Virus record (IMG/VR): IMGVR_UViG_3300035661_000009
Coordinates: 1 to 64,000 of that record
Length of the DNA: 64,000 nucleotides
Direction: 5' to 3' (one strand)
Source of the DNA: a virus
The translations under genes and the position numbers were made by a program. Shown here in pieces: positions 3,692 through 19,648 of this stretch; positions within the stretch are counted from its first letter, which is position 1; each line of letters starts with the position of its first letter. Under the pieces are notes generated by a model. It made no database searches and was not told where the DNA came from. It was given only the letters and a program-made list of their open reading frames with translations.

Positions 3692-4464
3692 TTTGGGAAT
3701 ACCTCCGCAAAGGCTTTGACGACCTGAACCTCTAGATAGGAGAGACTATCTTTCCTGTTAAGGATGATTAAATCAAATAAGTTTTTATTGATTAAATCTA
3801 CGTTTTCAGATACATGAGTATTGGCTTCTGGCGAAACCGGATTTTCTACCTTAATTATAGCTGATCCAATGGAGGCCAACGCTATTACTTCGTTTGGAAA
3901 CCGAGCGTCTGTGATTATAACAAACGGACAGCAATATTTAGCATCAGTTGGTATAAGGCCAATATTCTGATTGTATTTCCAACCACCAGATAGTAACTTA
4001 ATTGCCGTATCTTTAGTAAAATCGACCCATACATTGGAAGAAATTGATCTACCCCACTCCGTACCTAAATATTGAAGTACAACTCTTGGGGAGATTGTTG
4101 CTTCGAACTTTTTCATCAATTGCGGAAGTACATTCTTGCGTAATATATCAAGAGCTTTCATGTAATCGGGACCAAACACCTTCTTAATCTCTTCGTTTAA
4201 GAGATGGTGAGCTACGATTTCATAGTTTACCTCTTTCCAGACCTTGGCCCTAGTATCTGGGTTTAAAAATCTAGGATCTATTTGATCTCTGTTTTGTGAT
4301 GGGCCCCATAATTGATCATCGGAAAAAGAAAAAAGAATTTTAACTATACGTTTAAGCGGGTCGGCAAAAGCTATTGTAGTGCCACTAGTCATTAAAGATA
4401 ATATTGCTCCAACTGAGTCTTTTCCGGCACCAGCTCTTCCAACTATTGTGATTATTGGTATCAT
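3667..4464 (-). CDS. Deoxynucleoside monophosphate kinase (T4 gp1-like)
   Basis: GRAGAGKD P-loop, FADPLK, PRVVLQYLGTEWGR, ITDARFPNE, HVSE motifs; start probably at 4464 (ATGA overlap with thyX). Confidence 0.88.
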   Translation of the reverse strand: MIPIITIVGRAGAGKDSVGAILSLMTSGTTIAFADPLKRIVKILFSFSDDQLWGPSQNRDQIDPRFLNPDTRAKVWKEVNYEIVAHHLLNEEIKKVFGPDYMKALDILRKNVLPQLMKKFEATISPRVVLQYLGTEWGRSISSNVWVDFTKDTAIKLLSGGWKYNQNIGLIPTDAKYCCPFVIITDARFPNEVIALASIGSAIIKVENPVSPEANTHVSENVDLINKNLFDLIILNRKDSLSYLEVQVVKAFAEVFPKWQSIPIY

Positions 4465-5126
4465 TCTGACCATCCTATGGCTTTACAGACATTAGGGAAG
4501 GTTGGGATCATCACATCTCTAATGATAGCATGAGCTATATCTGCGTGTTCTTTTTGAGTTCCATTCCCAGAACGAAGTTGAAGATAATGAACCCAGCTCC
4601 TGAGACTGCCGTTCATGAACATGGTTGTTTTAGTATTTAATGGAAGCAAAAACCTTGCTTGTTCTTTGGCAATCCCTTTTTCTAAAGACTTATTATAAAG
4701 ATCGATCGAATTATTCCATACTTGCATTTGAGCTTCAGCAAACCATTCTTGGTCTTCTTTAGGCATGTCGTCTATACTATTTTGACGATTTTTAATATCT
4801 TGACGACGAGCAGGATATGTTTCATAGTCGCTAACTACTGAATATCGTTGACTAAATTCTTGAAAAACAAATGAGCGGTGGCGTAGGACCTGAGCGGCTA
4901 TAGCCCGGCTAGTTTGGATTTCTACACAAAAATTGACCATTTCTAGTGGTGACCAATGCTTATTTTCAATTAAATATTTTAAAAGTTTTGGGGCGGTATC
5001 TAATTTGTCTTGGTTTTGTGGTGCCGAGACTCTTGCTGTATAACAAACCAGATCTTCAGCGGTCATTGATTGCCCATTTGGAGTGGTAATTGTCGGCTGT
5101 TGTAGTGAAATTAACTTAACTTTCAT
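4461..5126 (-). CDS. thyX: FAD-dependent thymidylate synthase
   Basis: HWSPLE, QVLRHRSFVFQEFSQRY signature, EQARFLLP, TQKEH. Confidence 0.95.
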   Translation of the reverse strand: MKVKLISLQQPTITTPNGQSMTAEDLVCYTARVSAPQNQDKLDTAPKLLKYLIENKHWSPLEMVNFCVEIQTSRAIAAQVLRHRSFVFQEFSQRYSVVSDYETYPARRQDIKNRQNSIDDMPKEDQEWFAEAQMQVWNNSIDLYNKSLEKGIAKEQARFLLPLNTKTTMFMNGSLRSWVHYLQLRSGNGTQKEHADIAHAIIRDVMIPTFPNVCKAIGWSE

Positions 5127-6208
5127 TTAGTGCTCATTCCATGTGGAGTGCCTTCTATGTGGCTAGCTCCGGTTATCAACATAAATCTCACTTTTTGGCG
5201 AAATTCGGTTAAGTTGTTGCTTCCGCTATAGCTAAGGGCCGACTTTAATCCGCCATTTAAGTTATTTACTACTAATGAAACGGGTCCTGTCATCGGTTTC
5301 ATTATCGCAACGCCTTCTGGGGTATAGTCAGTAGGTAACTCTGGGTCAAAATCTGACCTGGCTTCTCTGCTTGCCATACCTCTATAAATTTTTTGGCCTT
5401 GCATTATAGTTCCGGGAGCCTCGGTTGTAGTGGCGAACAGACTACCTATCATAACAGTGTCGGCGCCGAAAGCAAGGGCCTTAGCTATGTCGCCTGAATC
5501 ACGAATACCGCCATCAGCTATAAGATCGAATTTAAAATCTTTCTTTAATTCTGCTACTTCTGCTATAGCTGTGATTTGTGGCACTCCGTGGCCTGTAACG
5601 CGACGGGTGGTGCAAACGGCACCGGGACCTATACCTACCTTCAAAGCATCTGCACCGGCCTCTAACAGCCTTTTACCGCCTTCATAGGTGGCTACATTAC
5701 CTGCAATGATTTTGGCTGTTGGAAAATCTTTTTTAATAGCTGTTATAGTTTCTATCATTAACTTGCTATCGCCGTGGGCTATGTCAATACACAAGCCATC
5801 TGCCGTTTTATTTGCAATTAACCATGATCCTAAATTAACAGCTTCGGATCCGACGCCAATGCTTGCAATAACTATACCGCCATTTTGTTTAATTAGTTTT
5901 GCTTGATCTACAATAGCTTGAATATCTTGGTATCTATGTAAAATCCCTATACCACCAAGGTTATTCATAGCTATAGCCATGTTAGCCTCGGTTACGGTAT
6001 CCATATTAGCTGAGATAAGTGGATTTAACAGCTTAAATCCTAGCAAAGAAGTCGATATGTCTACGTTTTTGCGGGTCTCTACCTCAGAGTATTGAGGTTC
6101 GAGAAGCACGTCGTCGAATGTAATTGCTTGATTTAACTGGTTAATTTTTGATACTGGCTTAGCCGCATATTTGGGCTTGCGTTTAAAAAGATTGAAGGGC
6201 AGTTTCAT
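5123..6208 (-). CDS. IMP dehydrogenase / GMP reductase family protein (no CBS domains)
   Basis: [38 protein letters not shown] (catalytic Cys), ADGGIR, YRGMAS, PEGV. Confidence 0.93.
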
Positions 6209-6222
6209 ATTTCCTCACAGTC

Positions 6223-6231
6223 ATTATACCA
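6223..6231 (-). promoter_or_regulatory. Sigma70-type extended -10 promoter (TGGTATAAT) for the nucleotide-metabolism cassette
   Basis: TG-n-TATAAT 14 nt upstream of the GuaB-family ATG, followed by GAGGA RBS. Confidence 0.6.
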
Positions 6232-6254
6232 CAGGTTAAGATGACAACAACAAA

Positions 6255-6287
6255 TAAGAAAGCCCAGCATGGGGCTGGGCTTTCTTA
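6255..6287 (-). terminator. Intrinsic terminator ending the capsid operon
   Basis: Perfect 14-bp inverted repeat TAAGAAAGCCCAGC / GCTGGGCTTTCTTA with 5-nt loop; U-rich run on the minus strand. Confidence 0.85.
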
Positions 6288-6306
6288 CTACAGACTGTTT
6301 ATTTTA

Positions 6307-6655
6307 TTACCAGAGCGCTGAATCAGTTGCTGAGGTTAGAACGAGTGCTCTCATTACTAAGTAGACGTTGCCAACGACGCCAGCTACTGGTAGAGTGCCC
6401 GCAGTAGCTACTAGATATCCCAATACTGCACCGCCCGCTGAAGGAATCATTAATACTGAGTCACCTACAGCTAATGCACCGAAGTCGGTAGTTGTTGAAG
6501 TGCTGGTTCCCGTGATCTTAGCGACACAGGTTTGAGCAGATAGAGCAGCTACTAATGCACCTTGGTTTACGTTTGTAATTACTTCTGTGGCAGTAGCGGG
6601 GTCTATTGAGATAGCAGTAAGTACCCCTTTTTGCCTTTTGTGATAAATTAGCCAT
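6307..6655 (-). CDS. Putative capsid decoration protein (115 aa), split by a +1 frameshift at 6624-6632; absent from ORF track
   Basis: AAGGAG RBS + ATG 6655. Frame 0 stops at 6518. The +1 frame reads GVLTAISIDPATATEV...LTSATDSALW* with structural-protein composition. Span is 349 nt (3n+1). Confidence 0.7.
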
Positions 6656-6679
6656 TTTGTAGCTCCTTATCCTTAGTTA

Positions 6680-8092
6680 TTAAAACGCACCGATTAGTGA
6701 GTCAATTAGAACGTTCTTGCGTGGCTCCAGAACCGCTAAGCAGAGGAAACGGAAATGCGCTTCAGGCTGTGAAAGGTCAACTACCGCTAGTTTTAGACGG
6801 CTGTATGAAGCTAGTTCCTTTAATACCATTGTATCCTTTTCTACTAGGAATCCAGTGATACCACCGGGTAGACGGTTATTTAGGTCAAGGAATTGTACTG
6901 AAGCTCCCTTGTACGCTACACGACCTACTAACTTCGCAGTTGACGCCGCACCACCTGAGGCTGAGCGGAATACGTTGAAGAAACGTACAGTACCTGAACC
7001 AACGGCACAGGTTACTTGGATTTGCTGACCGGCAGTTAATGAAGCTGAGGTTACAGCCGCTGAAGGTGCTGATTCACCAATTTCATTTTCCGCAGTAATG
7101 TAATAAGTATAAGTCGCGCCAGCTAGGAATGAAGTTGACCCAGCTTGAGGAGTGACTGAAGAAATTGAGGGCGTACCGGGAGCGCCGTTACGAGTTCTCT
7201 TTTGCTTAGTTTGCGCTGATAGGAAGCGTGAAGCTTCTAGGGTGACAACGCCACCTGAAACTGCTTGCTTACCGATATCCGCACCAGTGGTAGGCTCAGA
7301 AGCTGAGTTACCAAGAACAATGCGTTCCTTACCGGCATAGCTGTTCTTTGAGTAAGCTGATAGAACTAGAGGATCTATATAAAGCTTATCTGCCGATCCC
7401 ATGTTCATTAGACCACGAACCCAAGCATCTTCAATCATTGACTGGGTTAGAACACCACCACCAGCTATAATAACTGAAAGGTTTGAACCAAACGCGTCAA
7501 ACATTAGGTCTTGAGTGTTGGTTTGTGAGTCTGAAATACGAACTTGCGCATCTAGACCAACCATGTTAGGCATACGGTCTGGGAACGCTAGCGGGTTACC
7601 ATCGAAAACACCCGCGTTTGAGAAGTCGCCCTTACCACGGAAAATATCAAATTCGACATCGCCAGCGATTTTCTTCGCGCCTGATTGCGCTTCACGATCT
7701 TCCGCCTTAACGCCATCTTGAGTCTCTGCCATATTAGCAGCTAGAGTTACTCGACGAATGTGGCTGTAATAAGCCATCGGAACAACCGCGCGCACGAAGT
7801 CTGAGGTCTCTTCTGACCCTACTTGACCTTCGTGTTGCGCTGAACCGCCAAAGATACCATATGATAGCTGGCGATTGAATTGTACCAATTGACCCTTAGA
7901 CTTTTCCACCTTAACTTCTTTTTGAAGTTTGATGTGCTTGTCTTGGAAGGTGACGTTGTGCATTACAGGTGAAACATCTTCTACCTGTAGGGCGCTGCCT
8001 TGCACGAGTGAACCGGGAGAACCTGCATATGAGCCCAATTCTAGTGCCTTAACTAGATCTTCAATTTTGTTTAAAAGGTTTGTACCTGACAT
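6680..8092 (-). CDS. Major capsid protein (Herelleviridae-like, with FN3-like insertion)
   Basis: N-terminal KAL..G....PGSL..GSALQVEDV, then EFDIFRG and GLDAQV; insertion PGTP...YTYYITAENEIGESAPS; lies after scaffold; strong RBS. Confidence 0.9.
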   Translation of the reverse strand: MSGTNLLNKIEDLVKALELGSYAGSPGSLVQGSALQVEDVSPVMHNVTFQDKHIKLQKEVKVEKSKGQLVQFNRQLSYGIFGGSAQHEGQVGSEETSDFVRAVVPMAYYSHIRRVTLAANMAETQDGVKAEDREAQSGAKKIAGDVEFDIFRGKGDFSNAGVFDGNPLAFPDRMPNMVGLDAQVRISDSQTNTQDLMFDAFGSNLSVIIAGGGVLTQSMIEDAWVRGLMNMGSADKLYIDPLVLSAYSKNSYAGKERIVLGNSASEPTTGADIGKQAVSGGVVTLEASRFLSAQTKQKRTRNGAPGTPSISSVTPQAGSTSFLAGATYTYYITAENEIGESAPSAAVTSASLTAGQQIQVTCAVGSGTVRFFNVFRSASGGAASTAKLVGRVAYKGASVQFLDLNNRLPGGITGFLVEKDTMVLKELASYSRLKLAVVDLSQPEAHFRFLCLAVLEPRKNVLIDSLIGAF

Positions 8093-8107: not shown

Positions 8108-9145
8108 TTACTTCAGTAAGTGTGAAATTTCATTTACATCTACATCGCCTGCAAGAACGTATCGATTAATTAAATCTCGGTCCGATTTCTTCAAATCATT
8201 GCTTTGGGCTACTTGATTTAACTTCTTTAATACATCTTTGCGATTCATTGATACTGGCTTAGGCTTCTCTAATTCCGACTTGGCTACGAATTGAGCCATT
8301 GAAGTAAACGCCTTTTGTTGCGGGCGAGTAATCATCGTTTCTAGTAAACCCGTTAATCCAGCTAATTGTCTTTCTAATGAAGCAACCTTTTCATCGGTTG
8401 CTTTCTTTAGCTCATCAGCCCATACTGGAGCTTCTGAAGCTTGTAATTGTTCTGGCGGACCACCGGCACCCATTTCTGGAGGCATTCCGCCTGCACCCGG
8501 AGGGCCACCGGCTGGTGAGCCTGAGGCTTCTGGAGGCATTCCGCCTGCACCCGGAGGGCCACCTGCACCTTGATCTGGTGAAGGAGCACCCGGAGCCGCT
8601 GGAGCGCCTGCTCCACCGCTCATACGTTGCATAACTACCGCTCGGAGAGCTTCATAGTGCATTTGTAATTGATCATCAGGAAGCGCAGCATAAGCTTGTT
8701 CTAGAGTTTGTTCATCCCCTTGTTGCTGTTCTGGGGATTCTTGTCCGGGAGGAGCTTCTGCACCTTCTTCGCCACCATCTGCTGGCGGGGTTTCTGATTC
8801 TCCACCACCTTCTGACGCGCCTTCTGATGCACTTTCGCCACCCATATCGGGAGAACCTTCTGGAGCCGAACCTTCTTTCTCTAATTCAAGTTGTTCTGCG
8901 TCTTTCTTAAGACCGCCCTTATTCTCATGAACAATTTGACCTTCTTTGCCCATTTTGGGAGCTTTGTCGTGTAAAATTTGTGCATGACCGGAACTAGCTT
9001 GGCCGACTTCATGGCCACTTGAGCGTTGTCCGCCTGATTCAGCTGATGGATATTGTTTTCCACCTTCTGACTTTAATAGTTCGGGAAGATCCGTTCGGAG
9101 TTCTTCAATAAGTGAGTTAATTTCGTCGTCGGTATATGATTTCAT
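8108..9145 (-). CDS. Head scaffolding protein
   Basis: Acidic, low-complexity G/P/A/E sequence with coiled coil; many L-x-K-[S/A/D] sites; directly upstream of major capsid gene. Confidence 0.7.
   Translation of the reverse strand: MKSYTDDEINSLIEELRTDLPELLKSEGGKQYPSAESGGQRSSGHEVGQASSGHAQILHDKAPKMGKEGQIVHENKGGLKKDAEQLELEKEGSAPEGSPDMGGESASEGASEGGGESETPPADGGEEGAEAPPGQESPEQQQGDEQTLEQAYAALPDDQLQMHYEALRAVVMQRMSGGAGAPAAPGAPSPDQGAGGPPGAGGMPPEASGSPAGGPPGAGGMPPEMGAGGPPEQLQASEAPVWADELKKATDEKVASLERQLAGLTGLLETMITRPQQKAFTSMAQFVAKSELEKPKPVSMNRKDVLKKLNQVAQSNDLKKSDRDLINRYVLAGDVDVNEISHLLK
8474..8563. repeat. 36-bp perfect direct repeat (GGPPGAGGMPPE x2) in scaffold gene
   Basis: Copies at 8474-8509 and 8528-8563. 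Confidence 0.9.
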
Positions 9146-9175: not shown

Positions 9176-9637
9176 TTACATGTCGCCTAGGTCTTTCCAG
9201 TATAGGTCGCTTAGAACATAAGTAGGAGTACCGGTAATATCTGATACAGTAGGGATCGCACCGTTAGCGCGTATATAAACTTCAACGCGGACATGTTGTT
9301 GAGCTAGTTCTAGGAAAACGCGGTTCTTTACAACTTCAGCTACTAGCGAAACGCCAGTTAGACCAGCGGCTTGCTCTAGAACTACTTGAGCAATATGTGG
9401 ACCATACGAGTCTTGAGCAACGCCAACTGAGTTAAACCCAATTGAAGGCATTTCAATTATACGGATTACGACGTTATTTTCGCCAGTAGCGGGGGTGCCG
9501 TCGTTTACTGAAACTACAGGAAAACCTGAAGAATCTAGTGATTCAATTACTGATAAAATCGGGGTCTCTTGCATGCGTAGAGTTAGCTTTTGTGCAAGGG
9601 TACGTGATAAAACTAGTGCTTTCTTAAGTGTGGACAT
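9176..9637 (-). CDS. Putative head structural protein
   Basis: 153 aa; AGGAG RBS; N-terminal LKKA site; first gene ahead of scaffold and capsid genes. Confidence 0.55.
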   Translation of the reverse strand: MSTLKKALVLSRTLAQKLTLRMQETPILSVIESLDSSGFPVVSVNDGTPATGENNVVIRIIEMPSIGFNSVGVAQDSYGPHIAQVVLEQAAGLTGVSLVAEVVKNRVFLELAQQHVRVEVYIRANGAIPTVSDITGTPTYVLSDLYWKDLGDM

Positions 9638-9743: not shown

Positions 9744-10157
9744 ATGGAAATGTTCAAATGTTCAAGATGTGAAGTAACTAAGTCGAGAGACAAGTTCCAT
9801 GAAGTAACTGATAAAAATAGAAATAGACCAGTTACTTCATGGTGTGCGGATTGTCGCAAGACAGCAGATAGAAGCCGAGAGCTTTTTAATTTTGCTTTTA
9901 AAAAATATGGCCAAATCTGTATTTATTGTAAATACCCCAAAAAGAACACCTATCGAGGAGTTTGTAAGAAATGTATGAAAAAGCAGGGCCTAAAAGAATG
10001 TAAACGATGCAAGACAATCCTTTTATTGGCTTTTGATTTTTGGGAAAAGAAAGGGGCTTGTAAACACTGCTTAAGAGAGCAATGGCGAGAAGAAGCTATT
10101 TTAAAGGGTGTTGGAGCTTTAAGCCGCGGGGAACAATTGTCTCAAGATAGGTCTTAG
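9744..10157 (+). CDS. Cys-rich zinc-finger protein (six CxxC), antisense to head operon
   Basis: CSRC, CADC, CIYC, CKKC, CKRC, CKHC; no recognisable HNH catalytic motif. Confidence 0.65.
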   Translation: MEMFKCSRCEVTKSRDKFHEVTDKNRNRPVTSWCADCRKTADRSRELFNFAFKKYGQICIYCKYPKKNTYRGVCKKCMKKQGLKECKRCKTILLLAFDFWEKKGACKHCLREQWREEAILKGVGALSRGEQLSQDRS

Positions 10158-10794
10158 ATTTTTCTAATGGTCGCCAATCATCTGGCGGAGCTTCGTGCAA
10201 CTTAGATACATGAATAAACGGCTCTTTGCCTAAATCAAAATGCTTAACCCTTTGGCTGTTTATCATTCCACCAAGAATATCCTTTGCTTCTTGCAATGCT
10301 TGTTCTGCTTGTCCCGGAGAATAGCCAATGCCTACAGAAACGGTGAATTTATGGTTGGTTCCAGACAATACTTCTGTTTCATCTAGCTTTTGTTCTAATT
10401 CTTTAGTAAATCCAAGGGCTTCTTGTGGAGATTTAAATATAATTCTGCTTTTATCCCCACTAACTCTAAAGGCATGAACCTTATATTTCTTAGATAATTC
10501 TAGTATTGAATTAAACATTAGCGAAACGCCTTCATCTCCCATTAATTGGCCATGGGTGTCGCTTAATGCTCCGACCGAATTACCATCAATAGTTACGTGA
10601 ACGCCTGAATTTTTATTAAAAGCCACGAATTTCTTGTAAGAAAATAGATTCCCAAAGTCTGGAAACTGACTATCCTTTTCGATATGATCAGGAAACTCAG
10701 GCTCGGCTGGTTTTTCATAGATAGGCAAGGAAGGATCCATCTTTTGAAGATTTTCCATTCCCTTAAGTAGTTCGAAGTAGTCTTCATTAAACAT
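10096..10794 (-). CDS. GGDEF-fold protein with degenerate active site (SGDKS)
   Basis: Colinear GGDEF landmarks: KD......GN, TIDGN, LSDTHGQLMGD, FRVSGDKS, TVSVGIG, AEQALQEAK. Confidence 0.8.
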   Translation of the reverse strand: MFNEDYFELLKGMENLQKMDPSLPIYEKPAEPEFPDHIEKDSQFPDFGNLFSYKKFVAFNKNSGVHVTIDGNSVGALSDTHGQLMGDEGVSLMFNSILELSKKYKVHAFRVSGDKSRIIFKSPQEALGFTKELEQKLDETEVLSGTNHKFTVSVGIGYSPGQAEQALQEAKDILGGMINSQRVKHFDLGKEPFIHVSKLHEAPPDDWRPLEKSKTYLETIVPRGLKLQHPLK

Positions 10795-11240
10795 TAGAAC
10801 TTCTCCATTTTATACTTGCCTAGTTGTACTTGTGCAAATAGCTCTTTTAATTCGTCTTTAGAAATTTGCTTCCCACCAAATATGGTGTTTATTCCGTATA
10901 TTTCAAGTATTTTAGGCTGATCTATCCCATTCCACACAAAATACTTGGCGTCTGGGTCTACATCGCCAAGACTCATTTCAGGAATAACGTCGTCGTGAGC
11001 CCCTTCATTGGCTTGTTTATCAGAAATGACTTTAAAATACGGTGTGTGGCAAAGATGGAATATCTTTTTTGATATTTCTGGAGTTATTGGACCTTCTATT
11101 ACATCTTCCATCAAATTATCGTGATCTTCTAATATGTAGAATTTACCGTTTTTAATAAAAAACTTAGACACTTGTCTTTCTACGGGTTTGCCGTATCCTG
11201 ATTTAATGCTATAGACTCTATAAATTCCGTCTTTTAACAT
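10794..11240 (-). CDS. Hypothetical protein between protease-kinase and GGDEF genes
   Basis: 148 aa; AGGAG RBS; TAATG coupling to the GGDEF gene. Confidence 0.7.
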   Translation of the reverse strand: MLKDGIYRVYSIKSGYGKPVERQVSKFFIKNGKFYILEDHDNLMEDVIEGPITPEISKKIFHLCHTPYFKVISDKQANEGAHDDVIPEMSLGDVDPDAKYFVWNGIDQPKILEIYGINTIFGGKQISKDELKELFAQVQLGKYKMEKF

Positions 11241-11248
11241 TTAGACTC

Positions 11249-13246
11249 CTAGACCCCGTAGTTCTTATGTGCCGACAAGATATCGCCCATACTGTTCTGA
11301 CCCAATACTGAGGTAGATTGCATTGCTAGTAGTCTTTTAACTGCCTTTTCTACTAATGTCGGGTGGATCTTGCTTTCTTCTAGTTGGCGCTTTAATTCAA
11401 ATGGATCTAAACCTACTAGCCATTTCTTAGCTTCAGGGTGAATGTTTTTTTCATAAATATTTTTACCCTTAATTCTTGCATAATCTTCCAAATATGATGG
11501 AATCTCGTCCTTGTTGTAGTCAAAGGTAAGTGCGTTATCAATAAGCATTACTTTGTTATTACGTTTATCAATCATGTAGTTAGTTTTGTTTCTATCTCTG
11601 TTGCCTAGAACCGTGTCCATAATGGCCATTTTATCTAATTGACCGGTAACCCCTTCTTTATGCAATATTGGACGAGTAGCCGCTGAAGGAGAATCTGGGT
11701 GAAAATGAACCGCTTCAGGCAAGACTTCCATTGCTGAATGTTCTTTGCCACCTTCTGGGTGAGAAAAGAGGGTTGTCGTAGGAACGTTGTCTATACCGAA
11801 AAATCCCTTTGATAAGTTATGGAATATAACCTCTCTTGCTGCCGTCGAAGGTTTTATTTCTTTATCTGGCTCATCCTCATAATCTACGCTTGGCTTTACG
11901 TGGGCAGTTTTGCCGCTGGCTGACTTGTACCAACCATAAGCTGCGTCTTTGTCTTTAATATGCCAAGTGGAAGTTCTTGGATGATCTACAGATTCTTGTT
12001 TAATGTCAATTCCGTGAATTAAATCTTTTTGTTCATGCGTCTTTGTGTGATCAAGACTTGAATGTTTACCACCATCTACATATAAAGCTTCATGAACCTC
12101 TTCTGGCATCTTTATAATAGCGAAGTGACTGCCTTCTTGTTTTCTATTGATCTTATTTATATTGACTTCACTCTGATCGCCTGCTTTGGGTGGTTTTACG
12201 TGAACGTGAGTGTCGTCAACATGAAGCAATTTAAGCTTACTTCCCTTAAATGGCCCGCCAATTAGCTCGATTTCTCCGGGCTTAACCATTTTATCTTTAT
12301 ATTTGATAGCACCTTTTTCTGCTTTTGGCAAATCCGATAATCCATCTTCCTCACTCTTGCGAAATTGGATTTCATTAACCATATCTGAATATTTATCCAA
12401 ATACTTGTCGGCAACATCTGGTAATGAATGTTTAAGAAACTTCTTAAGATAAGGCTTGAACGGCATTTTACCATCATAATCTCTAGCCGCAGCTAGTAAT
12501 TGATTTTTAAAGAACTTCTTTTTTCCAATTACATCTTCTACGGCTAAAGCAGAGCCGCCAGTTAATGAACCGGGAGCGGCATCGCCGCCGCCGAGAGTTA
12601 ACGTCTTTTCTAGAGCTACATCTACCATTTCATATTCCATCTCACTAATGGCAATATATTTTTCGCTCTTTTGAACATCGACCCCAACTTGCTTAACCTT
12701 AGGTTCTGAAACTAGGTTACTAAAACTGCTACGATTACAAGGCTTGATAGTTGCAGCTACTCGACGAGCAATAGTCTTTAATAGATAGTTGCCGTTTCTA
12801 TCAATGGTGCTTCCTTCAATACTGTATCTAATAACAATTGGCAAGCCACGACGATGATAATGTTTAATCATAGCGGCGGCGTCTTTTGCGTTACTATGCC
12901 CTTCTTTGTCAAATAATTCAGAAGCTCCGTAGATAAATGGGAGTTTAATTTCATTCCAAAGCTTAAGCTCTCTCTCAGATTCACAATCTTCTTCGCCAAA
13001 TATTTTCTTAGCGAAGATAATTCTTCCTATGATTACAGAGAAGGTGGCTGATTCTTTTTTGTCTGGATTATTGTGCTCTGTATTCAAAATGCCATCTTCA
13101 TTTAATGATGATATATCAGCGCCCTTAACGCTGATAATTTCTCCTGAAGTATCAATGGCTTCTGTAGCAAAAGCACCATCTATAACGGTGCCATGATCTG
13201 GATAGCGAAGCGCTTCCTCTATTTTAGGATGGAATTTGACTAACAT
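11249..13246 (-). CDS. Prohead protease fused to KOW-like domain and C-terminal HipA/PI4K-like kinase
   Basis: N-terminal DTSGE, LNTEH (His), YSIEG (Ser), VAATIKPCN, directly after portal; middle IGGPFKG; C-terminal HVKP, AAREV, VPTT, MDTVLGNRDRNKTNY, LIDNALTF. Confidence 0.85.
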   Translation of the reverse strand: MLVKFHPKIEEALRYPDHGTVIDGAFATEAIDTSGEIISVKGADISSLNEDGILNTEHNNPDKKESATFSVIIGRIIFAKKIFGEEDCESERELKLWNEIKLPFIYGASELFDKEGHSNAKDAAAMIKHYHRRGLPIVIRYSIEGSTIDRNGNYLLKTIARRVAATIKPCNRSSFSNLVSEPKVKQVGVDVQKSEKYIAISEMEYEMVDVALEKTLTLGGGDAAPGSLTGGSALAVEDVIGKKKFFKNQLLAAARDYDGKMPFKPYLKKFLKHSLPDVADKYLDKYSDMVNEIQFRKSEEDGLSDLPKAEKGAIKYKDKMVKPGEIELIGGPFKGSKLKLLHVDDTHVHVKPPKAGDQSEVNINKINRKQEGSHFAIIKMPEEVHEALYVDGGKHSSLDHTKTHEQKDLIHGIDIKQESVDHPRTSTWHIKDKDAAYGWYKSASGKTAHVKPSVDYEDEPDKEIKPSTAAREVIFHNLSKGFFGIDNVPTTTLFSHPEGGKEHSAMEVLPEAVHFHPDSPSAATRPILHKEGVTGQLDKMAIMDTVLGNRDRNKTNYMIDKRNNKVMLIDNALTFDYNKDEIPSYLEDYARIKGKNIYEKNIHPEAKKWLVGLDPFELKRQLEESKIHPTLVEKAVKRLLAMQSTSVLGQNSMGDILSAHKNYGV

Positions 13247-15150
13247 TATCGACCCTTAATTAGTTTTAATGCCTTTTCAATAGAAGCTCTTTCACCTTTG
13301 CTTAACTCTGATCGGGTAAGTAGGCTTTCTAATTGATTAACTCCGGTCATTAATTCATTACCTTGAGAATTAGCTTGTTGTGTTTTTTGTTGCTCTTGTT
13401 GCTGAAGCTGTTGTTGTTGTTGCATTTGTTGCTCAGCCATCTTCTTTTGTTCTTCTTGTTGTTGTCGAGCTTCAATTAACTGCTTTTGAGTAAACCAGAA
13501 TTGATCTCGACGATAGCCATTCATTGGGTCTTTTTTAGCTTCTTTGTCGTCAAAGAAATATTCTTTAATTTCTCCAACAGTAAAATAATTGTCAAGAATC
13601 TTCTGGAACATTTCGTTAAATGGAAATTCGCCGCCCATTTTACGACCGACTTTGGGCTTTTCTACCTTTTCAAGTATTTCGTCCATCGTGCCCCAGATAG
13701 GAGCCCACTCTTGAATAGCGGTTCTTTCTTTTTCAGGAGAATCGGTTTCTAATCCGTGGAATCTAACAGTACAATATTCGGCTAATTCTTTATCTATTAA
13801 TGGAAGAATCTTAGTTGAAAGGAAGTCTTGTAAGTGTGAAAGCAATGGACGGATGCCTACGTCTCTATGCGCTTCAAGCTTGTATTCATTATTTGATTCT
13901 GATAAAGTCTGGGTGTTAGTACCCTTTGACAAATGTGAATAAGCAGGAACTTCGTCTGGCGACATTTGGAACGCAGCTAAGACTACACGACAATTACTAT
14001 CATATAGGTATTGGAATTCCATATCTCTTGAAGCTCCATCCATGGGAGCCCAAGTTACCTTATCTTCTTTACCTACTTTAATTACTGGAGTTTTCCACGA
14101 ATTGCTTACGCTGTTAATAGCCGCATTGAATTGCTGCTTAAGATCTGCTAAGGTGCTAGGGTCTACCTCATCTGAGCTAATAACCATCATGCCCTTCGCT
14201 GCACGTCCGTTTTGGAAATAAAGCTTATTGTGGTTAGTTATATTAATATGGGTAGTTATTGCAGCGAATGCAACATCGATTGGCGTAATTGGATACCCAT
14301 TATTTTCAATATCGGTCGATGGATAGCAGTTCCTTACTATTAACTCATCGGCCTCAAATCCTTGGGCTGGTGTTCCGTTAATTACTTGAAAGAATTTATA
14401 ATCATCAGCTTTGAACTTCTTAGGGTCAAGCTTGAGATTTTTCTGTTCAGAAATTACCCTAATCGCTTCTTTTCTAATGTTCGCATCTATACTGTCGGTA
14501 GGAACTGCGCGATAAACAGTGCCAGCGTCAACTGGCCTAAAAGCATAAAAACCGTTTTTATTGCCCTGGGTGTCTCGTTTGTGAATAACTTCGGTGGCGA
14601 ACCTTCCAAATAATAAGGCGTTTCGAGCGGTTAGATACAAGAAGGTTGATAAGCTCATCATGTCGTCTTCGTCTGTATCTTCTGTATGGCCACAGGTCAA
14701 AAGGATTTCTTGAGCCTTGTCCATTCTGATTCGAAGCTCTTTTGCTTTTTCTTTATCTAAATGCTTGAATTTATGTGGCTTAGGATCTACTCTAAATCCC
14801 CACTCAAAACGATCTTCCAATATTTGACCGAATACAGCACTTTGGTTTGCACGAATATGTAAAATGTTGGCGATCAAATCATCCGTCACTGAAACGCGCT
14901 TTAACAAAATATCGGGTAATTGACCTACTTTGTCATAGAAAATACCCATAAAGCGATTTACGCTCTTTGGATCCTCTTCTAAAGCTAGTCGTTGGATTTT
15001 GTTAGATTTAGTGATACTTGTTAATATGCTCTTAATTAGCGGAGTTACGTTAGGTAACTCGATGTTTTCGCCATCTTCATATTTAGCAAGCACATCTGGT
15101 GTGATTTGATTATCGAGAGCTTCGAATTCAAATCGGGGCTTTTTGGACAT
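13246..15150 (-). CDS. Portal protein
   Basis: RPVDAGTV, GYPITPID, YFQNG..AKG, NSWKTP, DMEF, AAFQMSPDEV, GIRPLL; position between terminase and protease; poly-Q C-terminal tail. Confidence 0.9.
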   Translation of the reverse strand: MSKKPRFEFEALDNQITPDVLAKYEDGENIELPNVTPLIKSILTSITKSNKIQRLALEEDPKSVNRFMGIFYDKVGQLPDILLKRVSVTDDLIANILHIRANQSAVFGQILEDRFEWGFRVDPKPHKFKHLDKEKAKELRIRMDKAQEILLTCGHTEDTDEDDMMSLSTFLYLTARNALLFGRFATEVIHKRDTQGNKNGFYAFRPVDAGTVYRAVPTDSIDANIRKEAIRVISEQKNLKLDPKKFKADDYKFFQVINGTPAQGFEADELIVRNCYPSTDIENNGYPITPIDVAFAAITTHINITNHNKLYFQNGRAAKGMMVISSDEVDPSTLADLKQQFNAAINSVSNSWKTPVIKVGKEDKVTWAPMDGASRDMEFQYLYDSNCRVVLAAFQMSPDEVPAYSHLSKGTNTQTLSESNNEYKLEAHRDVGIRPLLSHLQDFLSTKILPLIDKELAEYCTVRFHGLETDSPEKERTAIQEWAPIWGTMDEILEKVEKPKVGRKMGGEFPFNEMFQKILDNYFTVGEIKEYFFDDKEAKKDPMNGYRRDQFWFTQKQLIEARQQQEEQKKMAEQQMQQQQQLQQQEQQKTQQANSQGNELMTGVNQLESLLTRSELSKGERASIEKALKLIKGR

Positions 15151-15153
15151 AAA

Positions 15154-16143
15154 TTACTCCGCTGACATTATAACAATATTTAAAGGATTTGTGGTCGAAC
15201 GGTTAACTACGTCCAATTGCCAACATGGACCGGGGCCTTTTTCGAACCAACCTACTTGACTACCAATACTTGATGTTATAGTGTCTAATCTAAGCGAACT
15301 ACCTGTATCGCCATTTAATCGTAAAACGGCTTGTTGATCTACTTCTACTCTAAGAAATCTTTTGGTCTTTGAATAAATGACTAATCCAGTCGCCGTAGGC
15401 GCTACGCCAGTTTCTAATGGAAGGGCTGACGTACTGATGAATTCTATCCAACTCGGGGTTACGGCAGTAATTACATAAGCTTTTCTAGTTACTGCGCTGA
15501 ATCCAGACGATATTTCTACTGTTGAGCCAACTTGAACCAAATCTGAGCTAAAAACTTGGAATTGAGTGTCTGTGATGGGGGTTTGAGCTTCTGCTACACC
15601 AGAAAAAGCTACTCCCGTTTGCCTTACTGCTGTTAATTGAGTCGTCGAAACGCCAATTATTGTCCATAATCCACCGTTTACAACGCTAAATGGGCTAAGT
15701 AAGGAGGCGTCTCCGGTTAAGGTCGTAGGCAGGAATAATGTATCTCCAGTCTGTACAGCGCCAAATATAGCAGAACCAGCCGTAAATGTAGCTGTTGCGT
15801 TGTTATTTATAGCTATAGTTACTAAAACACCTGAAACCGCAACGGTACGAGCAGTTCTAAATACAGGAGCAGTCCCACTAGTGTTAGTAATGCGGTAAGT
15901 TGAGGTTAAGTAAGGATTTAAAGCGATACTAAATAACGATGTATTGTCTATAGAAGTAGCCTGAGCTCCGGTAAATATATTAAGAGTTTGGCCTGGAAGT
16001 AGCTTAACTCGTGACATACTAGGATTAGTTACGGAAATACTTAAGACGTTACGTTTCCAGTCAATAAACCTTTGTTGGGGGTTATTTGTGGCGGTTGCGT
16101 CATCATAAATGTTTACCGTTGATAAAGAATTAAGAAGGGACAC
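15154..16143 (-). CDS. Putative virion structural protein (T/S-rich, beta-rich)
   Basis: 329 aa; GTG start with GGAG RBS; late-promoter motif upstream. Confidence 0.55.
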   Translation of the reverse strand: MSLLNSLSTVNIYDDATATNNPQQRFIDWKRNVLSISVTNPSMSRVKLLPGQTLNIFTGAQATSIDNTSLFSIALNPYLTSTYRITNTSGTAPVFRTARTVAVSGVLVTIAINNNATATFTAGSAIFGAVQTGDTLFLPTTLTGDASLLSPFSVVNGGLWTIIGVSTTQLTAVRQTGVAFSGVAEAQTPITDTQFQVFSSDLVQVGSTVEISSGFSAVTRKAYVITAVTPSWIEFISTSALPLETGVAPTATGLVIYSKTKRFLRVEVDQQAVLRLNGDTGSSLRLDTITSSIGSQVGWFEKGPGPCWQLDVVNRSTTNPLNIVIMSAE

Positions 16144-16179: not shown

Positions 16180-19026
16180 TTATATCGAGAATAACAGACC
16201 GCCCGGCTTGCCAGTTACTTTAACCTCTCCATCGGAGGCGTCAATTCCCGCCTTTTTCTGAATCCAGCCTTCATTTGGGTCTCTTTGGTATATTTTATTA
16301 TTATCATTAAATACCATAACCGCTTTTGACTTGTTTAATGGCACGTTTTGGCATAAATATCTAAATGCATCTAATTCGTCGTCATCTTGACTATCCGGCT
16401 CATCCGTTAGATTGCCCTGTGGATCGATTTTCCAGTGGTATCCGACTATCTTAGTAGCCAAGAATTCACAGCCAGGATCTTCCTTAAGTAAGAATACTGA
16501 TGGAGGAAGGCCGTTTCCGGGCATTATACGCTTTCTTGCATTTTCAATACCTAATTGAACTTCTTTTTTAAAGTTAATCATTCTAAAACCCGCCATTCTA
16601 AACGATTTAACGTCTGAAGGATAGGCGTTATCTGGATATATGGCGGGGTTTAATGGAGTAAGCTTTTCTTTACATAGTTCGATTCTTTGCTGTAATTCCA
16701 AGCCCTTAGCTGAAATTACGTCTATTATATAAAGAGTGTGACCTAATAGCGCCGCTGTAACTACAGCGAAATTATGAGTAAAGCCCCAGTCTAGTCCACA
16801 ATAAAATTCAGCTCCCATTCTTTTAAATATCTCTATTAGCTCTGCCTTATTTAAATGGTCAGGAAATTCTTCACCAGTAGCCCTTCTTGCCATGTCTGCG
16901 GCAGACAATAAATGCTTTTCTCTTTGAAAATTAGGATAAATCTTACCTTCTGAGGACGGTAAATAACACATTAATTGAGCACGAGCTAGATCTACCGATA
17001 TAGTAGAAAATAAGGGCTGTACGTGGTTGATTTTCTTTAATAACTTACTGTCTGATGTTTGCTTAGTAGCTAAACGCCCCTTACATTGAGCAAAGAGTTT
17101 ACAATTTTGTAAACAGCCTTTATAGCCCATTTTAACGTCCCATTGAGCTTTTTCTTTTTCAGATAGCAAGTCGTGTTCTGCTTTGCTAATCGCCCGTAAA
17201 TTATTTTCAGAAAAATAAATGGGGATTTGTGGTTCTTCTGGCAAATGCCTCTTAGGTGGGCATCTTTCGGTTACGTCAATAATATTCCAATGGCGTATAT
17301 TTAAGCCGGTCCTATGGCTAGCGTCGATTTCTTGCTGAACTAACCCGAATGAATATTTTCTAGTAGAGGTAAGAAAGGTAATGGGTAGCTGTCCGTCATC
17401 CCCCATTGATGGAATCATCTTGCTTTCGTCATAAGCGGCGGGTTCTGATAGATCTAGTTCGTCGCAATTTTTAACTAAAACCCCATTGGCTATGAAGTTA
17501 TGGTTGTCTTTAACGGTAAAATCAATTACCCAGTCTTCGCCCATAGGTTCAATAGACTTGATAATGTCTACTTTAATTGATTTTGACTGGGCGGCAACAC
17601 ACATTTGATTACCGCAAGTAACTGCGGATTTACCCAGCATTGCTGGATAGTATTGTTTTTTACAAAAACGGCATTCTTTTTGTGGTGATATGTCAAATTT
17701 ATACATCATGGTCGGGTGTATGTATTTTTTGCAAATCTTAAATAATTCTTTTGAGTTATTAGAGTAAAACCCATATAATAATTTTTGAGTATATCCGCTT
17801 TTAGCTGTCTTATTTTGAGTGAATTTAAGTTTTTGGCTTAATTTATTCAATTTCCAATCTAAATAATCTTTTTGCGCATAACTATGTTGTTCTTTAAAGC
17901 AAGAATTTGATGTTTGTCCCCTATAGACTCCAGCATCTCCTAATAATGAACCTATTAATGTCTGTTCAAAACAATCGGATATCGGCTCTTTATATTTAAT
18001 TTTTATATCGCTAACTATAGGCAATAATTGTTTCTTAGCCATTGATTGTGTTTTATATATTCTTAAAACTCCGTCTCCGATGTTTAAATCTTTAACTTCT
18101 TTATAACCATTAAGCGTCATTATTGGATGATTTTCGGTACAGACTAAATTTTTACCACTTTCTAATGAAATTTTAAATACTTTTTTAAACGATCTTCTTG
18201 TAGCTATTATGGGTTTAAATTCAAATAAGCCATTTTTATAATTAAATGATAAAACTTCAATATTTTCTTGAACATTTTTTGTAAATCCTTCTAATTTATT
18301 TTTAATATTTGGAGAAAATCCCATTAATCTATTAAAAATTACTCCAGCTTTAGCTGGTATTCTATCTCGTTTATTTTTAATGCTATTATTTTTGATTAAA
18401 ATTTCACTTTGATCTGAAACACAAACGAAAAAAGGGGCGTGAAGCCCGTTAGCTCCACCAACCGTAGCGATAACGATCTTAATCCAACTAACCTTTTCTT
18501 CATAATTCTTCTTTTCATGATCAGTTAGTTTATTGAATTCGGCTGGAGAAATAGATCTAGATCCATCCATAGATAAATATCTAGTAATTTCTATTTGTCT
18601 TTTGTTCTTAGAGGTCATAAATTCTCTAAGAATTGGACGTTTAAAATAACCCTCTATATATCTCTGGCAATTGTTAGCTTGAGCTTCTAATGCCGCCATA
18701 TGGCCAACATTACGACCGAGGTGGAACATACATAAAGTTTCAAGAATGGCTGCTGATAGCGTCTTAAAACTATCTCTAGCTGCGAACCCTAATACGCGAG
18801 TAAATGTTTCATCTTGGCCATTTCTCGCTTTTGAGTATATTTCCCAAATTAAATCCATTGGGCTTGAATTGCTTGAAGGATTCCTGACCTCATCATCACA
18901 TACAATTACATTAGGCACGTCAATACCTAAATATATCTTAATCCACTTATGTAAGTGTTCCTTGGTGTCACACGGAATGAATAATGCTTTTCTGAGTATC
19001 TCTTCTTGTTCTTCTTTACTTAGCAT
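16180..19026 (-). CDS. terL: Terminase large subunit (intein-containing)
   Basis: ARDSFKT Walker A variant; FFV|CDE Walker B split by intein; nuclease motifs GLDWGF and DDDELDAFRY; start probably MLSKEE at 19026. Confidence 0.9.
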   Translation of the reverse strand: MLSKEEQEEILRKALFIPCDTKEHLHKWIKIYLGIDVPNVIVCDDEVRNPSSNSSPMDLIWEIYSKARNGQDETFTRVLGFAARDSFKTLSAAILETLCMFHLGRNVGHMAALEAQANNCQRYIEGYFKRPILREFMTSKNKRQIEITRYLSMDGSRSISPAEFNKLTDHEKKNYEEKVSWIKIVIATVGGANGLHAPFFVCVSDQSEILIKNNSIKNKRDRIPAKAGVIFNRLMGFSPNIKNKLEGFTKNVQENIEVLSFNYKNGLFEFKPIIATRRSFKKVFKISLESGKNLVCTENHPIMTLNGYKEVKDLNIGDGVLRIYKTQSMAKKQLLPIVSDIKIKYKEPISDCFEQTLIGSLLGDAGVYRGQTSNSCFKEQHSYAQKDYLDWKLNKLSQKLKFTQNKTAKSGYTQKLLYGFYSNNSKELFKICKKYIHPTMMYKFDISPQKECRFCKKQYYPAMLGKSAVTCGNQMCVAAQSKSIKVDIIKSIEPMGEDWVIDFTVKDNHNFIANGVLVKNCDELDLSEPAAYDESKMIPSMGDDGQLPITFLTSTRKYSFGLVQQEIDASHRTGLNIRHWNIIDVTERCPPKRHLPEEPQIPIYFSENNLRAISKAEHDLLSEKEKAQWDVKMGYKGCLQNCKLFAQCKGRLATKQTSDSKLLKKINHVQPLFSTISVDLARAQLMCYLPSSEGKIYPNFQREKHLLSAADMARRATGEEFPDHLNKAELIEIFKRMGAEFYCGLDWGFTHNFAVVTAALLGHTLYIIDVISAKGLELQQRIELCKEKLTPLNPAIYPDNAYPSDVKSFRMAGFRMINFKKEVQLGIENARKRIMPGNGLPPSVFLLKEDPGCEFLATKIVGYHWKIDPQGNLTDEPDSQDDDELDAFRYLCQNVPLNKSKAVMVFNDNNKIYQRDPNEGWIQKKAGIDASDGEVKVTGKPGGLLFSI
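17467..18423 (-). mobile_element. Intein in TerL Walker B (319 aa; decayed LAGLIDADG)
   Basis: CVSD...CTENHP...DFTV..NHNFIANGVLVKN|C; single GSLLGDAG motif. Confidence 0.9.
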
Positions 19027-19648
19027 TTTGTTCTCTTGTAGCAATTAAGTCAAGCAATTCGCTGGCTGCCGCGCTACTTACTCTCTTAGCTTCTGGACCT
19101 TTCATTTCACTAGTAACTGCATGTAAATGCTTAACTGTTCCACCAACCATTACTTCTTTCTTATCGCCAGTTCCTTCAGTAAGTAATTTTAACATAGTTA
19201 AGATTTCTTTATAATTCTTCAAAGAACTTGGATCAAATCCTTGTAATAGCTCTTGATTACCTTCTTGGAGAAATTGTGCTACCTTATCCCCCCAAATCTT
19301 ATGAGCAGCCGCAAGTAGGTCAGATAAATGACTCAATGCATCTTGTTTAACCTTATAGACCTTACGCTCGACTTGACTATGCAAAGCCATTAACTGACGA
19401 TCGCGTCTTATATCCCAATTTAAACGGTCTTTAGCGTCAATTATAGCACCGTATTCAAAGGCTCCGCCATTTGCTTTAAAGATTTGCTCACAAGTATAGC
19501 CGTTTAAATAGAGTTCATACATCTTTACCGCTGTTGGAAGTGGGACGGGGAGTTCCTTTTTTCGCTTCCACTCCCTTAGCGCGAACTCTTCTTCGTCCGG
19601 CACTAGTTTTTCCGTCTGTGGTATTGTCAGTTCCTTGGGCGATTCCAT
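19016..19648 (-). CDS. Putative terminase small subunit
   Basis: Directly upstream of terL; N-terminal HTH-like segment (MYELYLNGYTCEQI), helical body. Confidence 0.5.
   Translation of the reverse strand: MESPKELTIPQTEKLVPDEEEFALREWKRKKELPVPLPTAVKMYELYLNGYTCEQIFKANGGAFEYGAIIDAKDRLNWDIRRDRQLMALHSQVERKVYKVKQDALSHLSDLLAAAHKIWGDKVAQFLQEGNQELLQGFDPSSLKNYKEILTMLKLLTEGTGDKKEVMVGGTVKHLHAVTSEMKGPEAKRVSSAAASELLDLIATREQNAK

Follow-up and report, generated by a model that had tools for sequence, protein, structure and literature searches.

The loading of enzymes into phage heads, and their trimming by the maturation protease, are already known from T4 and from giant phages. The T4 internal proteins IPI-III and Alt carry an N-terminal capsid-targeting sequence, are cut by gp21 and are injected with the DNA. 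In the present work we analyzed the head module encoded on IMG/VR virus record IMGVR_UViG_3300035661_000009. The window, i.e. the whole stretch of 64,000 nucleotides to which the positions below refer, is the initial 64 kb of a phage genome, one contig of 160,015 bp. Directly after the portal gene, three tightly linked genes are located on the minus strand, with exactly the open reading frames (ORFs) given in the original prediction, which had been made from the sequence alone. They encode a 665-amino-acid (aa) fusion of a prohead protease with a kinase, a 148-aa protein and a 232-aa protein with a GGDEF fold.

The closest described systems are the head modules of the Herelleviridae (SPO1, Twort and phage K; phrog_1028, Twort ORF040). 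The protease fold with its His and Ser motifs, the order portal-protease-scaffold-capsid and a related capsid protein are common to both, and so are, immediately behind the catalytic domain, a copy of the capsid N-arm and a [V/L]-x-K/[S/A/T] motif. The capsid, the protease and the gene order of the present phage are of the SPO1/Twort (Herelleviridae) type, and its closest cultured relative is Myxococcus phage Mx1. In contrast to the 261-aa Twort protease, which has no appended domains, the protease described here is extended by a beta domain and a kinase, and a ~150-aa protein, a GGDEF-fold protein and a ~155-aa protein are encoded between protease and scaffold.

With the T4 internal proteins the module would share its proposed logic, in which enzymes are taken up into the core of the procapsid, the maturation protease trims them at a short consensus, and they stay with the DNA and enter the host with it. 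The protease fold is likewise common to both, and the GGDEF-fold protein starts with a short N-terminal helix that ends in the motif and resembles a targeting sequence. The differences from T4 are that one putative cargo is covalently part of the protease, that the cleavage specificity would be after Lys and not after Glu, and that the cargo would consist of a kinase of the phosphatidylinositol 4-kinase (PI4K) type and a GGDEF-fold protein. A second point of comparison is provided by the polyvalent proteins found on phages and conjugative elements (Iyer et al. 2017, PMC5512222), in which unrelated enzymes, kinases, GGDEF domains and peptidases included, are strung together; according to prediction, they enter the host along with the invading DNA and are processed by a peptidase that forms part of the protein. 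The fusion shares with them its multi-domain, phage-borne nature. In polyvalent proteins, however, assemblin-like peptidases are rare and always C-terminal, and the kinases belong to a truncated Ser/Thr/Tyr-type clade (Iyer et al. 2017, PMC5512222), whereas the fusion described here begins with the protease, which is the maturation enzyme of the phage itself, has a kinase of the PI3/PI4 type, and is found as a rule throughout a large clade. The proposed logic would also be that of the processed ejection proteins of SPN3US and phiKZ (PMC5694885, PMC7411985, PMC10052503); these come from another lineage, their motif ends in Glu, and the cargo is encoded by separate genes and is not part of the protease.

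We found no published description of a PI3/PI4-type kinase fused to a maturation protease, or of a GGDEF unit in a head module; the original prediction knew of none for this arrangement either. The arrangement is not unique to this contig, since it is present in Mx1, whose genes are annotated as a protease and a cyclase; the Mx1 genome note makes no mention of protease-kinase or cyclase genes. Here, the putative cargo is welded to the protease itself, and the same kinase is present across hundreds of phage lineages. The three genes and the parts of the fusion are as follows.

11249-13246, minus strand: protease-kinase fusion gene (P0001, 665 aa), one uninterrupted 665-codon frame
12692-13201, minus strand: prohead (capsid maturation) serine protease domain, aa 16-185, identified by its fold and by catalytic His58 and Ser142
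12533-12691, minus strand: disordered linker, aa 186-238, with the putative sites V-Q-K193/S and L-E-K214/T followed by the arm copy
12347-12532, minus strand: helical module, aa 239-300, ending in the putative cut site F-R-K297/S; helices at 240-299 in the model
12062-12334, minus strand: small beta domain, aa 305-395, with eight short strands in the model
11252-12061, minus strand: type II PI4-kinase-like kinase domain, aa 396-665, identified by Pfam, fold and catalytic residues
10794-11240, minus strand: gene of the 148-aa protein (P0002), an ORF of no known family
10096-10794, minus strand: gene of the GGDEF-fold protein (P0003, 232 aa), an ORF assigned by its fold model

The stop of the portal gene overlaps the start of the fusion gene by 1 nt, an 8-nt gap separates the fusion gene from that of the 148-aa protein, and the latter overlaps the gene of the 232-aa protein by 1 nt.

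The N-terminal domain of the fusion is a capsid-maturation protease of the T4 gp21/herpes type, nearest to the Twort/SPO1 group. Because searches of Pfam and of the PDB sequences with the single sequence and with a 28-member profile found nothing, the assignment rests on PHROGs, on the alignment with the Twort protease and on structure. The PHROG family of head maturation proteases, phrog_1028, was matched by 19 of 28 family N-termini (best 5e-8), and hhalign related the domain to the 261-aa Twort protease (prob 92.8, E 4e-7), with His58 and Ser142 aligned to the Twort motifs N-Y-E-H and F-S-I-E-G (N-x-E-H and S-I-E-G in the alignment). An AlphaFold2 model of the fusion was built on 45 homologues; it has a mean predicted local distance difference test (pLDDT) score of 84, and values below 50 occur only at aa 186-238 and 294-301. 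Superposition of the model (aa 12-168) on T4 gp21 (5jbl) with VIA-align gave a Z of 10.0, with 125 aligned residues and a root-mean-square deviation (rmsd) of 2.7, and the varicella-zoster virus (VZV) protease gave a Z of 8.5. Moreover, a Foldseek search of the BFVD viral models returned many HK97-type prohead proteases (about 1e-5 to 1e-8), and template modelling (TM) scores of 0.63-0.70 to Peptidase_S78 clusters were obtained in the Atlas. Among 187 family representatives, H58 is kept in 185 and S142 in all 187. The gene is also located between those of the portal and of the scaffold and capsid, as in Twort. The prohead protease of the original prediction is thus borne out by fold, family and catalytic residues.

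The linker behind the catalytic domain contains the copy of the capsid arm that had been noticed earlier. Between aa 212-239 of the fusion and aa 13-40 of the capsid protein of this phage, the alignment score is 71, as compared to 24 ± 4 (maximum 49) in 1000 shuffles, and the match takes in the Leu-x-Lys immediately preceding the arm. The ordinary 261-aa protease of Twort also contains a 30-residue copy of its own capsid N-arm, with Val-x-Lys-Ser in front, so that the Twort protease and the Twort capsid protein have V-x-K-S plus the arm in common. To judge from this comparison, the arm copy is ancestral and is not a special cargo address, because Twort's ordinary protease has one too. Covariation of the arm copy with the capsid protein of each phage was not seen in this set, in which only 2 of 9 arm copies matched the capsid protein of their own phage best.

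The three candidate cut sites between the modules, VQK193-S, LEK214-T and FRK297-S, had likewise been proposed from the sequence, and all of them lie inside the two low-pLDDT segments. K193 is invariant in 26 sequences (alignment A1) and K214 in 45 (alignment A3). A [LIVMF]-x-K-[small] motif within a 30-residue window at the end of the helical module was found in 157 of 184 relatives, compared to 41 in random windows, and the joint motif with Glu at P2' was found in 89 as against 9 in random windows of the same proteins. The same kind of motif is present in other head proteins. In the capsid protein it ends a short leader:

8048-8092, minus strand: capsid leader of 15 aa, ending in L-V-K15/A, followed by the arm that is copied by the protease; L-x-K-A in 9/9 orthologues

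The scaffold contains three conserved [L/V]-x-K-[S/A] sites (K248, K289 and K320). In the portal, P-L-[I/V/A]-K/S is conserved near residue 40 (here P-L-I-K40-S), and [L/I/M]-x-K-[S/G]-E is present in all orthologues near the C-terminus (~residue 618), which suggests that the portal may also be trimmed by the protease. We found no accessible paper that gives an experimental cut site of a Herelleviridae capsid protein.

Taken together, the first ~300 residues of the fusion appear to have the build of a complete Twort-type protease, with the parts following one another as they do there: the catalytic domain, a cut site, the copy of the capsid N-arm and C-terminal helices. An hhalign comparison of the linker and helical module with the C-terminal part of the Twort protease was not significant (prob 3%). 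Judging by lengths and module order, the kinase part was added, behind a further cut-site motif, at about the position at which the 261-aa protease of Twort stops.

The beta domain that follows carries a KOW-like G-x-x-G-P-F-x-G motif and is present in about 130 of 189 relatives. Comparison with the NusG/Spt5 KOW domains gave only non-significant matches (E 0.15-0.22 over 25-29 residues), and no Pfam match was obtained among 25 family members; the domain is KOW-like by motif, and this relationship is not proven.

The C-terminal domain has a kinase fold of the PI3/PI4 superfamily and is similar to type II PI4-kinases. It matched Pfam PI3_PI4_kinase (PF00454) with an E-value of 2.5e-7 and 31.3 bits, above the curated cut-off of 27.1, although this match covers only aa 534-581. 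The best structural match was PI4KII-alpha (4pla), with a VIA-align Z of 18.0 and an rmsd of 3.5 over 248 residues at 14% identity; Foldseek additionally gave 4hnd at 1.5e-5. The catalytic elements are Lys451, Glu472, D551-R-x-x-x-N556 and I-D570-N, and among 174 representatives each of the residues K451, E472, D551, R552, N556 and D570 is retained by 160-172. The fusion has the Lys, D-R-x-x-x-N and I-D-N elements in common with PI4KII-alpha and its bacterial relatives CtkA and HipA/HipT; unlike these, its kinase is located at the end of a phage protease. The kinase had been called HipA/PI4K/CtkA-type, with intact motifs. The fold and the motifs stand, but HipA and CtkA, which it resembles in fold, are not its closest relatives: their Z values fall within 10.6-13.2 (CtkA 13.2, HipT 11.1, HipA 10.6-10.7), as do those of actin-fragmin kinase and CotH and, at about 13, of Fam20, and no match to the HipA Pfam family was obtained.

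In order to define the extent of the family, 1.84 billion representative proteins were scanned in full, which gave 1012 relatives at E<1e-3, of which 427 also passed E<1e-30; full-length homologues of the fusion are 33-74% identical to it. When 189 relatives were dissected with five segment profiles, about 170 were found to carry both protease and kinase. To judge from these comparisons, the fusion is real and ancient, and the kinase is a constant element of the family and not an interchangeable cargo, because about 170 of 189 representatives keep it together with the protease. The variable C-terminal cargo for which a survey of relatives had been suggested was therefore not observed. The variable element is instead a stretch of 400-1000 residues inserted between helical module and beta/kinase part, which is absent here and in the nearest relatives. 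A Pfam tally of the long inserts returned almost nothing: inteins in 3, and single matches to GNAT, GGDEF and domains of unknown function (DUFs).

In Mx1 the corresponding protein has 1239 aa and bears the annotation "putative prohead protease"; behind its gene come a 150-aa gene and then one annotated "nucleotide cyclase". The order large terminase, 329-aa protein, portal, protease-kinase, ~150-aa protein, GGDEF protein, ~155-aa protein, scaffold and capsid was observed in Mx1 and in seven metagenomic loci, these being the loci read through to the capsid gene. A megablast search of the region against phage genomes gave no match, and tblastn found Mx1 only. Among 185,579 bacterial and archaeal genomes there was one match, a 165-kb contig (L012) binned with an Elusimicrobia metagenome-assembled genome (MAG). 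It has the protease-kinase and GGDEF arrangement, with the protease-kinase (5995-7685) split over two reading frames. This contig is phage-sized and is probably a phage binned with the MAG.

The third gene of the group encodes a protein with the following parts.

10741-10794, minus strand: N-terminal helix of the GGDEF-fold protein, ending in L-Q-K18/M; helix 4-19 in the model
10195-10677, minus strand: GGDEF core, aa 40-200, in which SGDKS replaces GGDEF
10099-10158, minus strand: disordered tail, aa 213-232, as seen in the model

Its AlphaFold2 model (pLDDT 81) shows a GGDEF domain together with this helix and tail. Foldseek matched it to WspR, SadC and DgcB at about 2e-6, with TM scores normalized by target of up to 0.67, and the family profile matched solved cyclases at 3e-11 (3ign). 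The single sequence gave Pfam GGDEF at 1.2e-4 and 22.3 bits, which is below the cut-off of 23.8. It is important to mention that the orthologues used here were taken from the neighbours of the protease homologues; a word-based search gave one relative only. The claim of a GGDEF fold with a degenerate motif is in agreement with these results: SGDKS is present instead of GG[DE]EF, and a Ser replaces the base-binding Asn of I-N-K-x-H-G. The nearest relative shares SGDK[S/A] and the loss of the base-binding Asn. Other relatives have GGDEF, GGDEG or GGDEN, most of them GGDEF or GGDEG (alignment A4), and keep the substrate motif N-x-x-x-G-H...G-D. Canonical synthesis of cyclic di-GMP by the copy of the present phage is thus unlikely, because its cyclase signature is degenerate. 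Compared to the cyclases WspR, PleD, SadC and DgcB, the protein has the same fold, and its relatives keep signature and substrate motif; it differs from them in its own SGDKS, in lacking the base-binding Asn and a sensor domain, and in its location in a phage head module with a dedicated partner of ~150 aa, the two being fused in some relatives. Of 6 split orthologues, 5 have the L-x-K18 site, which is also found at the joint of the three fused forms; it resembles the capsid leader E-D-L-V-K15/A, although it is too short for statistics. The split GGDEF-like proteins share a disordered C-terminal tail ending in G-L-K-L-x-N-P-L-K, which is absent from the fused forms. This tail may be a docking peptide.

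The 148-aa protein is of no known family, as had been stated: no Pfam or PHROG match was obtained, and its look-alikes in the Atlas are unnamed bacterial clusters only, without a model. An orthologue was found in every related locus read downstream, either separate or fused to the GGDEF-like domain; the two form one polypeptide in L003, L008 and L009, with L-x-K at the joint. A complex model of the 148-aa and GGDEF-fold proteins gave an interface score (ipSAE) of 0.61 (0.59-0.65 in three runs), as compared to 0.00 for the best control. At least 50% of contacts are shared between the runs, and the pLDDT of the partner is at least 72. The pass mark was calibrated on solved complexes and mismatched pairs, by which it was reached in 58 of 80 and 2 of 110 cases, respectively; these counts are approximate here because own alignments were used. 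In the predicted interface, a conserved I-L-E-D-H strand of the 148-aa protein packs against residues 41-51 and 110-113 of the GGDEF-fold protein, the latter being the GGDEF-motif loop. Because of the fusion in three relatives and of this modelled interface, the 148-aa protein is more likely a cap, pro-domain or partner of the GGDEF-fold protein than an inhibitor of the kinase.

The simplest reading of these data is that the fusion is co-assembled into the procapsid and cut there by the protease, because the fusion is ancient, conserved Lys motifs are located in its disordered joints, and the same motif is found in the capsid leader and before the GGDEF core. The protease part would bring the whole fusion into the procapsid, as its covalent connection to the kinase suggests. 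To judge from motif conservation, the activated protease would then cut the three disordered joints at [L/V/F]-x-K/[S/T/A], on the C-terminal side of Lys, and the same motif would be cut in the capsid leader, in the scaffold and probably in the portal. The folded ~40-kDa kinase would be released, would be too large for the capsid pores, and would be retained with the DNA. In the least certain step, the kinase would be expelled with the genome into the next host, where it would phosphorylate a host target before phage gene expression. The unit formed by the 148-aa and GGDEF-fold proteins would probably enter the head via the capsid-leader-like N-terminal helix of the latter, with the 148-aa part sitting on the GGDEF-motif loop like a cap or pro-domain.

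A head-loaded, protease-cut and ejected kinase together with a capped cyclase-like unit is the best explanation as a whole, and we give it an even chance of being right; the packaging and the cutting have good comparative support, and the ejection into the host and any "rewiring" role are pure inference. Only tentatively, and with more doubt than belief, can this be extended to a virion enzyme pair that is activated by the protease, is expelled with the DNA and, by phosphorylation and nucleotide signalling, reprograms the host before phage genes are read, throughout a clade of large Herelleviridae-related phages with more than 400 sequence clusters, Mx1 included. If true, the maturation protease would not only load an injected signalling kit but also activate it, and a phage-borne PI4K-like kinase and a capped GGDEF protein would be added to the possible tools of earliest infection. 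The protease-kinase fusion points to an infection step that nobody has studied. The arrangement is testable, since Mx1 grows on Myxococcus xanthus in the laboratory, and it is of current interest as bacterial immunity senses prohead proteases and signals with cyclic nucleotides.

Several observations weigh against a head-loaded and injected pair. The number of conserved [LIVMF]-x-K-[small] columns across the head proteins is 7, and the same pattern with Asp or Glu in place of Lys gave 6 and 4, respectively; the motif count alone is not significant, so that the case for cut sites rests on where the sites lie. At the C-terminal end of the GGDEF-fold protein, LEK212 is not conserved in the orthologues; of the two cut sites said to bracket this protein, only the N-terminal one, L-x-K18, is thus retained. 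The T4 protease digests itself and its fragments leave the head, and the cargo could likewise be degraded. The substrate class of the kinase points in two directions, as the best structural match of the model is a lipid kinase and the next ones are protein kinases. Additionally, the phage encodes a second pair of a kinase and a palm-domain protein:

G000:C1 157207-159372 (L011 7208-9373), minus strand: second, unfused PI3_PI4_kinase-type protein of 721 aa, Pfam 1.1e-8, catalytic motifs intact
G000:C1 153197-154648 (L011 3198-4649), minus strand: palm-domain protein of the mCpol (minimal CRISPR polymerase) type, 483 aa, Pfam 1.5e-8, above the cut-off

These genes are about 2.5 kb apart within a 6.2-kb stretch near the other end of the genome, so that two kinase-plus-palm-domain pairs are carried by the phage. 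The second, unfused kinase and its palm protein imply that such enzymes need no head route. No relation between the GGDEF-like and the mCpol-type protein was detectable with hhalign (prob 1.4%). Finally, the universal conservation of the kinase is unlike that of fast-changing injected effectors, and a role in core assembly or in the late cell would fit it equally well.

This last point leads to the strongest alternative, which we regard as rather unlikely, namely that the kinase, and perhaps the cyclase-like unit, acts only in the producing cell or in the procapsid, with nothing functional being delivered. The kinase could phosphorylate the scaffold, the portal or the capsid to time scaffold exit or protease activation, or it could blunt host immune systems that sense head proteins or prohead-protease activity, and the fusion would then provide timing and stoichiometry. 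To our knowledge, no phage head assembly needs a kinase, and the related Twort head module consists of portal, protease, scaffold and capsid without one. That about 170 of 189 representatives keep the kinase next to the protease, with hardly any change in its catalytic residues, is nevertheless a typical pattern of a core life-cycle function, and all the genes are located inside the late head module. Host cyclic-oligonucleotide-based antiphage signalling systems (CBASS) have been reported to sense prohead-protease activity (bioRxiv 10.64898/2026.03.04.709575), which makes late countermeasures encoded beside the protease conceivable. On the other hand, cleavable disordered joints around folded enzyme domains have the look of packaged cargo, and a protein located downstream of the capsid-binding parts of the protease would enter the head whether or not it is active there.

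According to an improbable alternative, the kinase-like and GGDEF-like domains are structural filler of the core or "inner body", with their activity irrelevant or lost, and are perhaps degraded. Large phages such as SPN3US (PMC7411985, PMC10052503) are known to pack many processed proteins into their heads, and the present GGDEF-fold protein lacks the signature Glu and the base-binding Asn. The Lys, Asp, Asn and Asp of the kinase are, however, each present in 163-172 of 174 diverged representatives, and GGDEF or GGDEG is intact in most relatives, neither of which would be expected for filler.

We consider it highly improbable that the 148-aa protein is an inhibitor or adaptor of the kinase, and that the kinase and the cyclase form one injected signalling cassette, as had originally been suggested. 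The 148-aa gene begins 8 nt after the kinase, and the second kinase and palm-domain genes, within about 6 kb of each other, are a slight indication that these types of enzyme are associated; however, the fusion in three relatives is to the GGDEF domain and not to the kinase, and the complex model places the 148-aa protein on the GGDEF-fold protein. That the fusion is an assembly or frameshift artefact of separate protease and kinase genes, one of the possibilities that had been named as refuting the prediction, is hardly credible in spite of the homologue split over two frames in L012, given the uninterrupted 665-codon frame, the absence of a convincing internal start or ribosome-binding site before the kinase, and the occurrence of the fusion in the finished Mx1 genome and in about 170 independent representatives from many samples. 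This number of independent assemblies already refutes the artefact.

The head module on the minus strand comprises, in order, the genes of the terminase, the 329-aa protein, the portal, the 665-aa, 148-aa, 232-aa and 153-aa proteins, the scaffold-like protein and the capsid. The following genes surround the three described above.

16180-19044, minus strand: large terminase with an intein, which contains a LAGLIDADG homing endonuclease
15154-16143, minus strand: 329-aa, beta-rich protein between terminase and portal, conserved in all related loci
13246-15150, minus strand: portal, 634 aa (Pfam Phage_portal 6.8e-13; phrog_12 1.3e-17)
9744-10157, plus strand: Cys-rich ORF of 137 aa with many CxxC pairs, convergent on the GGDEF-like gene and overlapping its 3' end by 62 nt
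9176-9637, minus strand: 153-aa head-module protein, with a 135-168-aa orthologue at the same place in all nine loci
8108-9145, minus strand: scaffold-like protein, 345 aa, of acidic, Gly/Pro-rich composition, preceding the capsid gene as in Twort
6680-8092, minus strand: major capsid protein of the SPO1/Twort type, 470 aa (phrog_752 1.2e-43)

In tblastn comparisons the capsid protein is 55% identical to that of Mx1 and 21-28% identical, over the full length, to Herelleviridae capsid proteins. No Pfam or PHROG match was obtained for the 329-aa and 153-aa proteins. The three genes described above do not end the operon as had been assumed: a convergent gene follows them, but the head module continues behind it with the 153-aa, scaffold and capsid genes, a gap of 458 nt separating the 232-aa gene from the 153-aa gene. 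A terminator 3' of the GGDEF gene was looked for and none was found. The convergent Cys-rich ORF is a real conserved gene, as genes at the same place are 57% identical in L005 and 27% identical in L006, and it resembles a small inserted gene that divides the head module into two transcription units.

Inteins were also observed in the terminase of relatives, and in L006 the portal likewise carries one. Relatives additionally contain a gene of 223-258 aa between portal and protease, which has a weak Phage_Mu_F match and a conserved H-P-x-C-R-C motif; it is absent from the present genome (whole-genome tblastn found nothing) and from the nearest relative, L005. Its positions are as follows.

L001 5628-6404, L002 9233-9970 and L003 7606-8370: post-portal gene, weak Phage_Mu_F match
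L006 7327-7998, L007 7317-7994 and L008 7220-7990: post-portal gene, weak Phage_Mu_F match

At 4461-6208 of the window, on the minus strand, the capsid gene is immediately succeeded by a gene of the IMP dehydrogenase/GMP reductase family (Pfam 3.7e-103) and one for the thymidylate synthase ThyX, and the same pair is found behind the capsid gene in several relatives.

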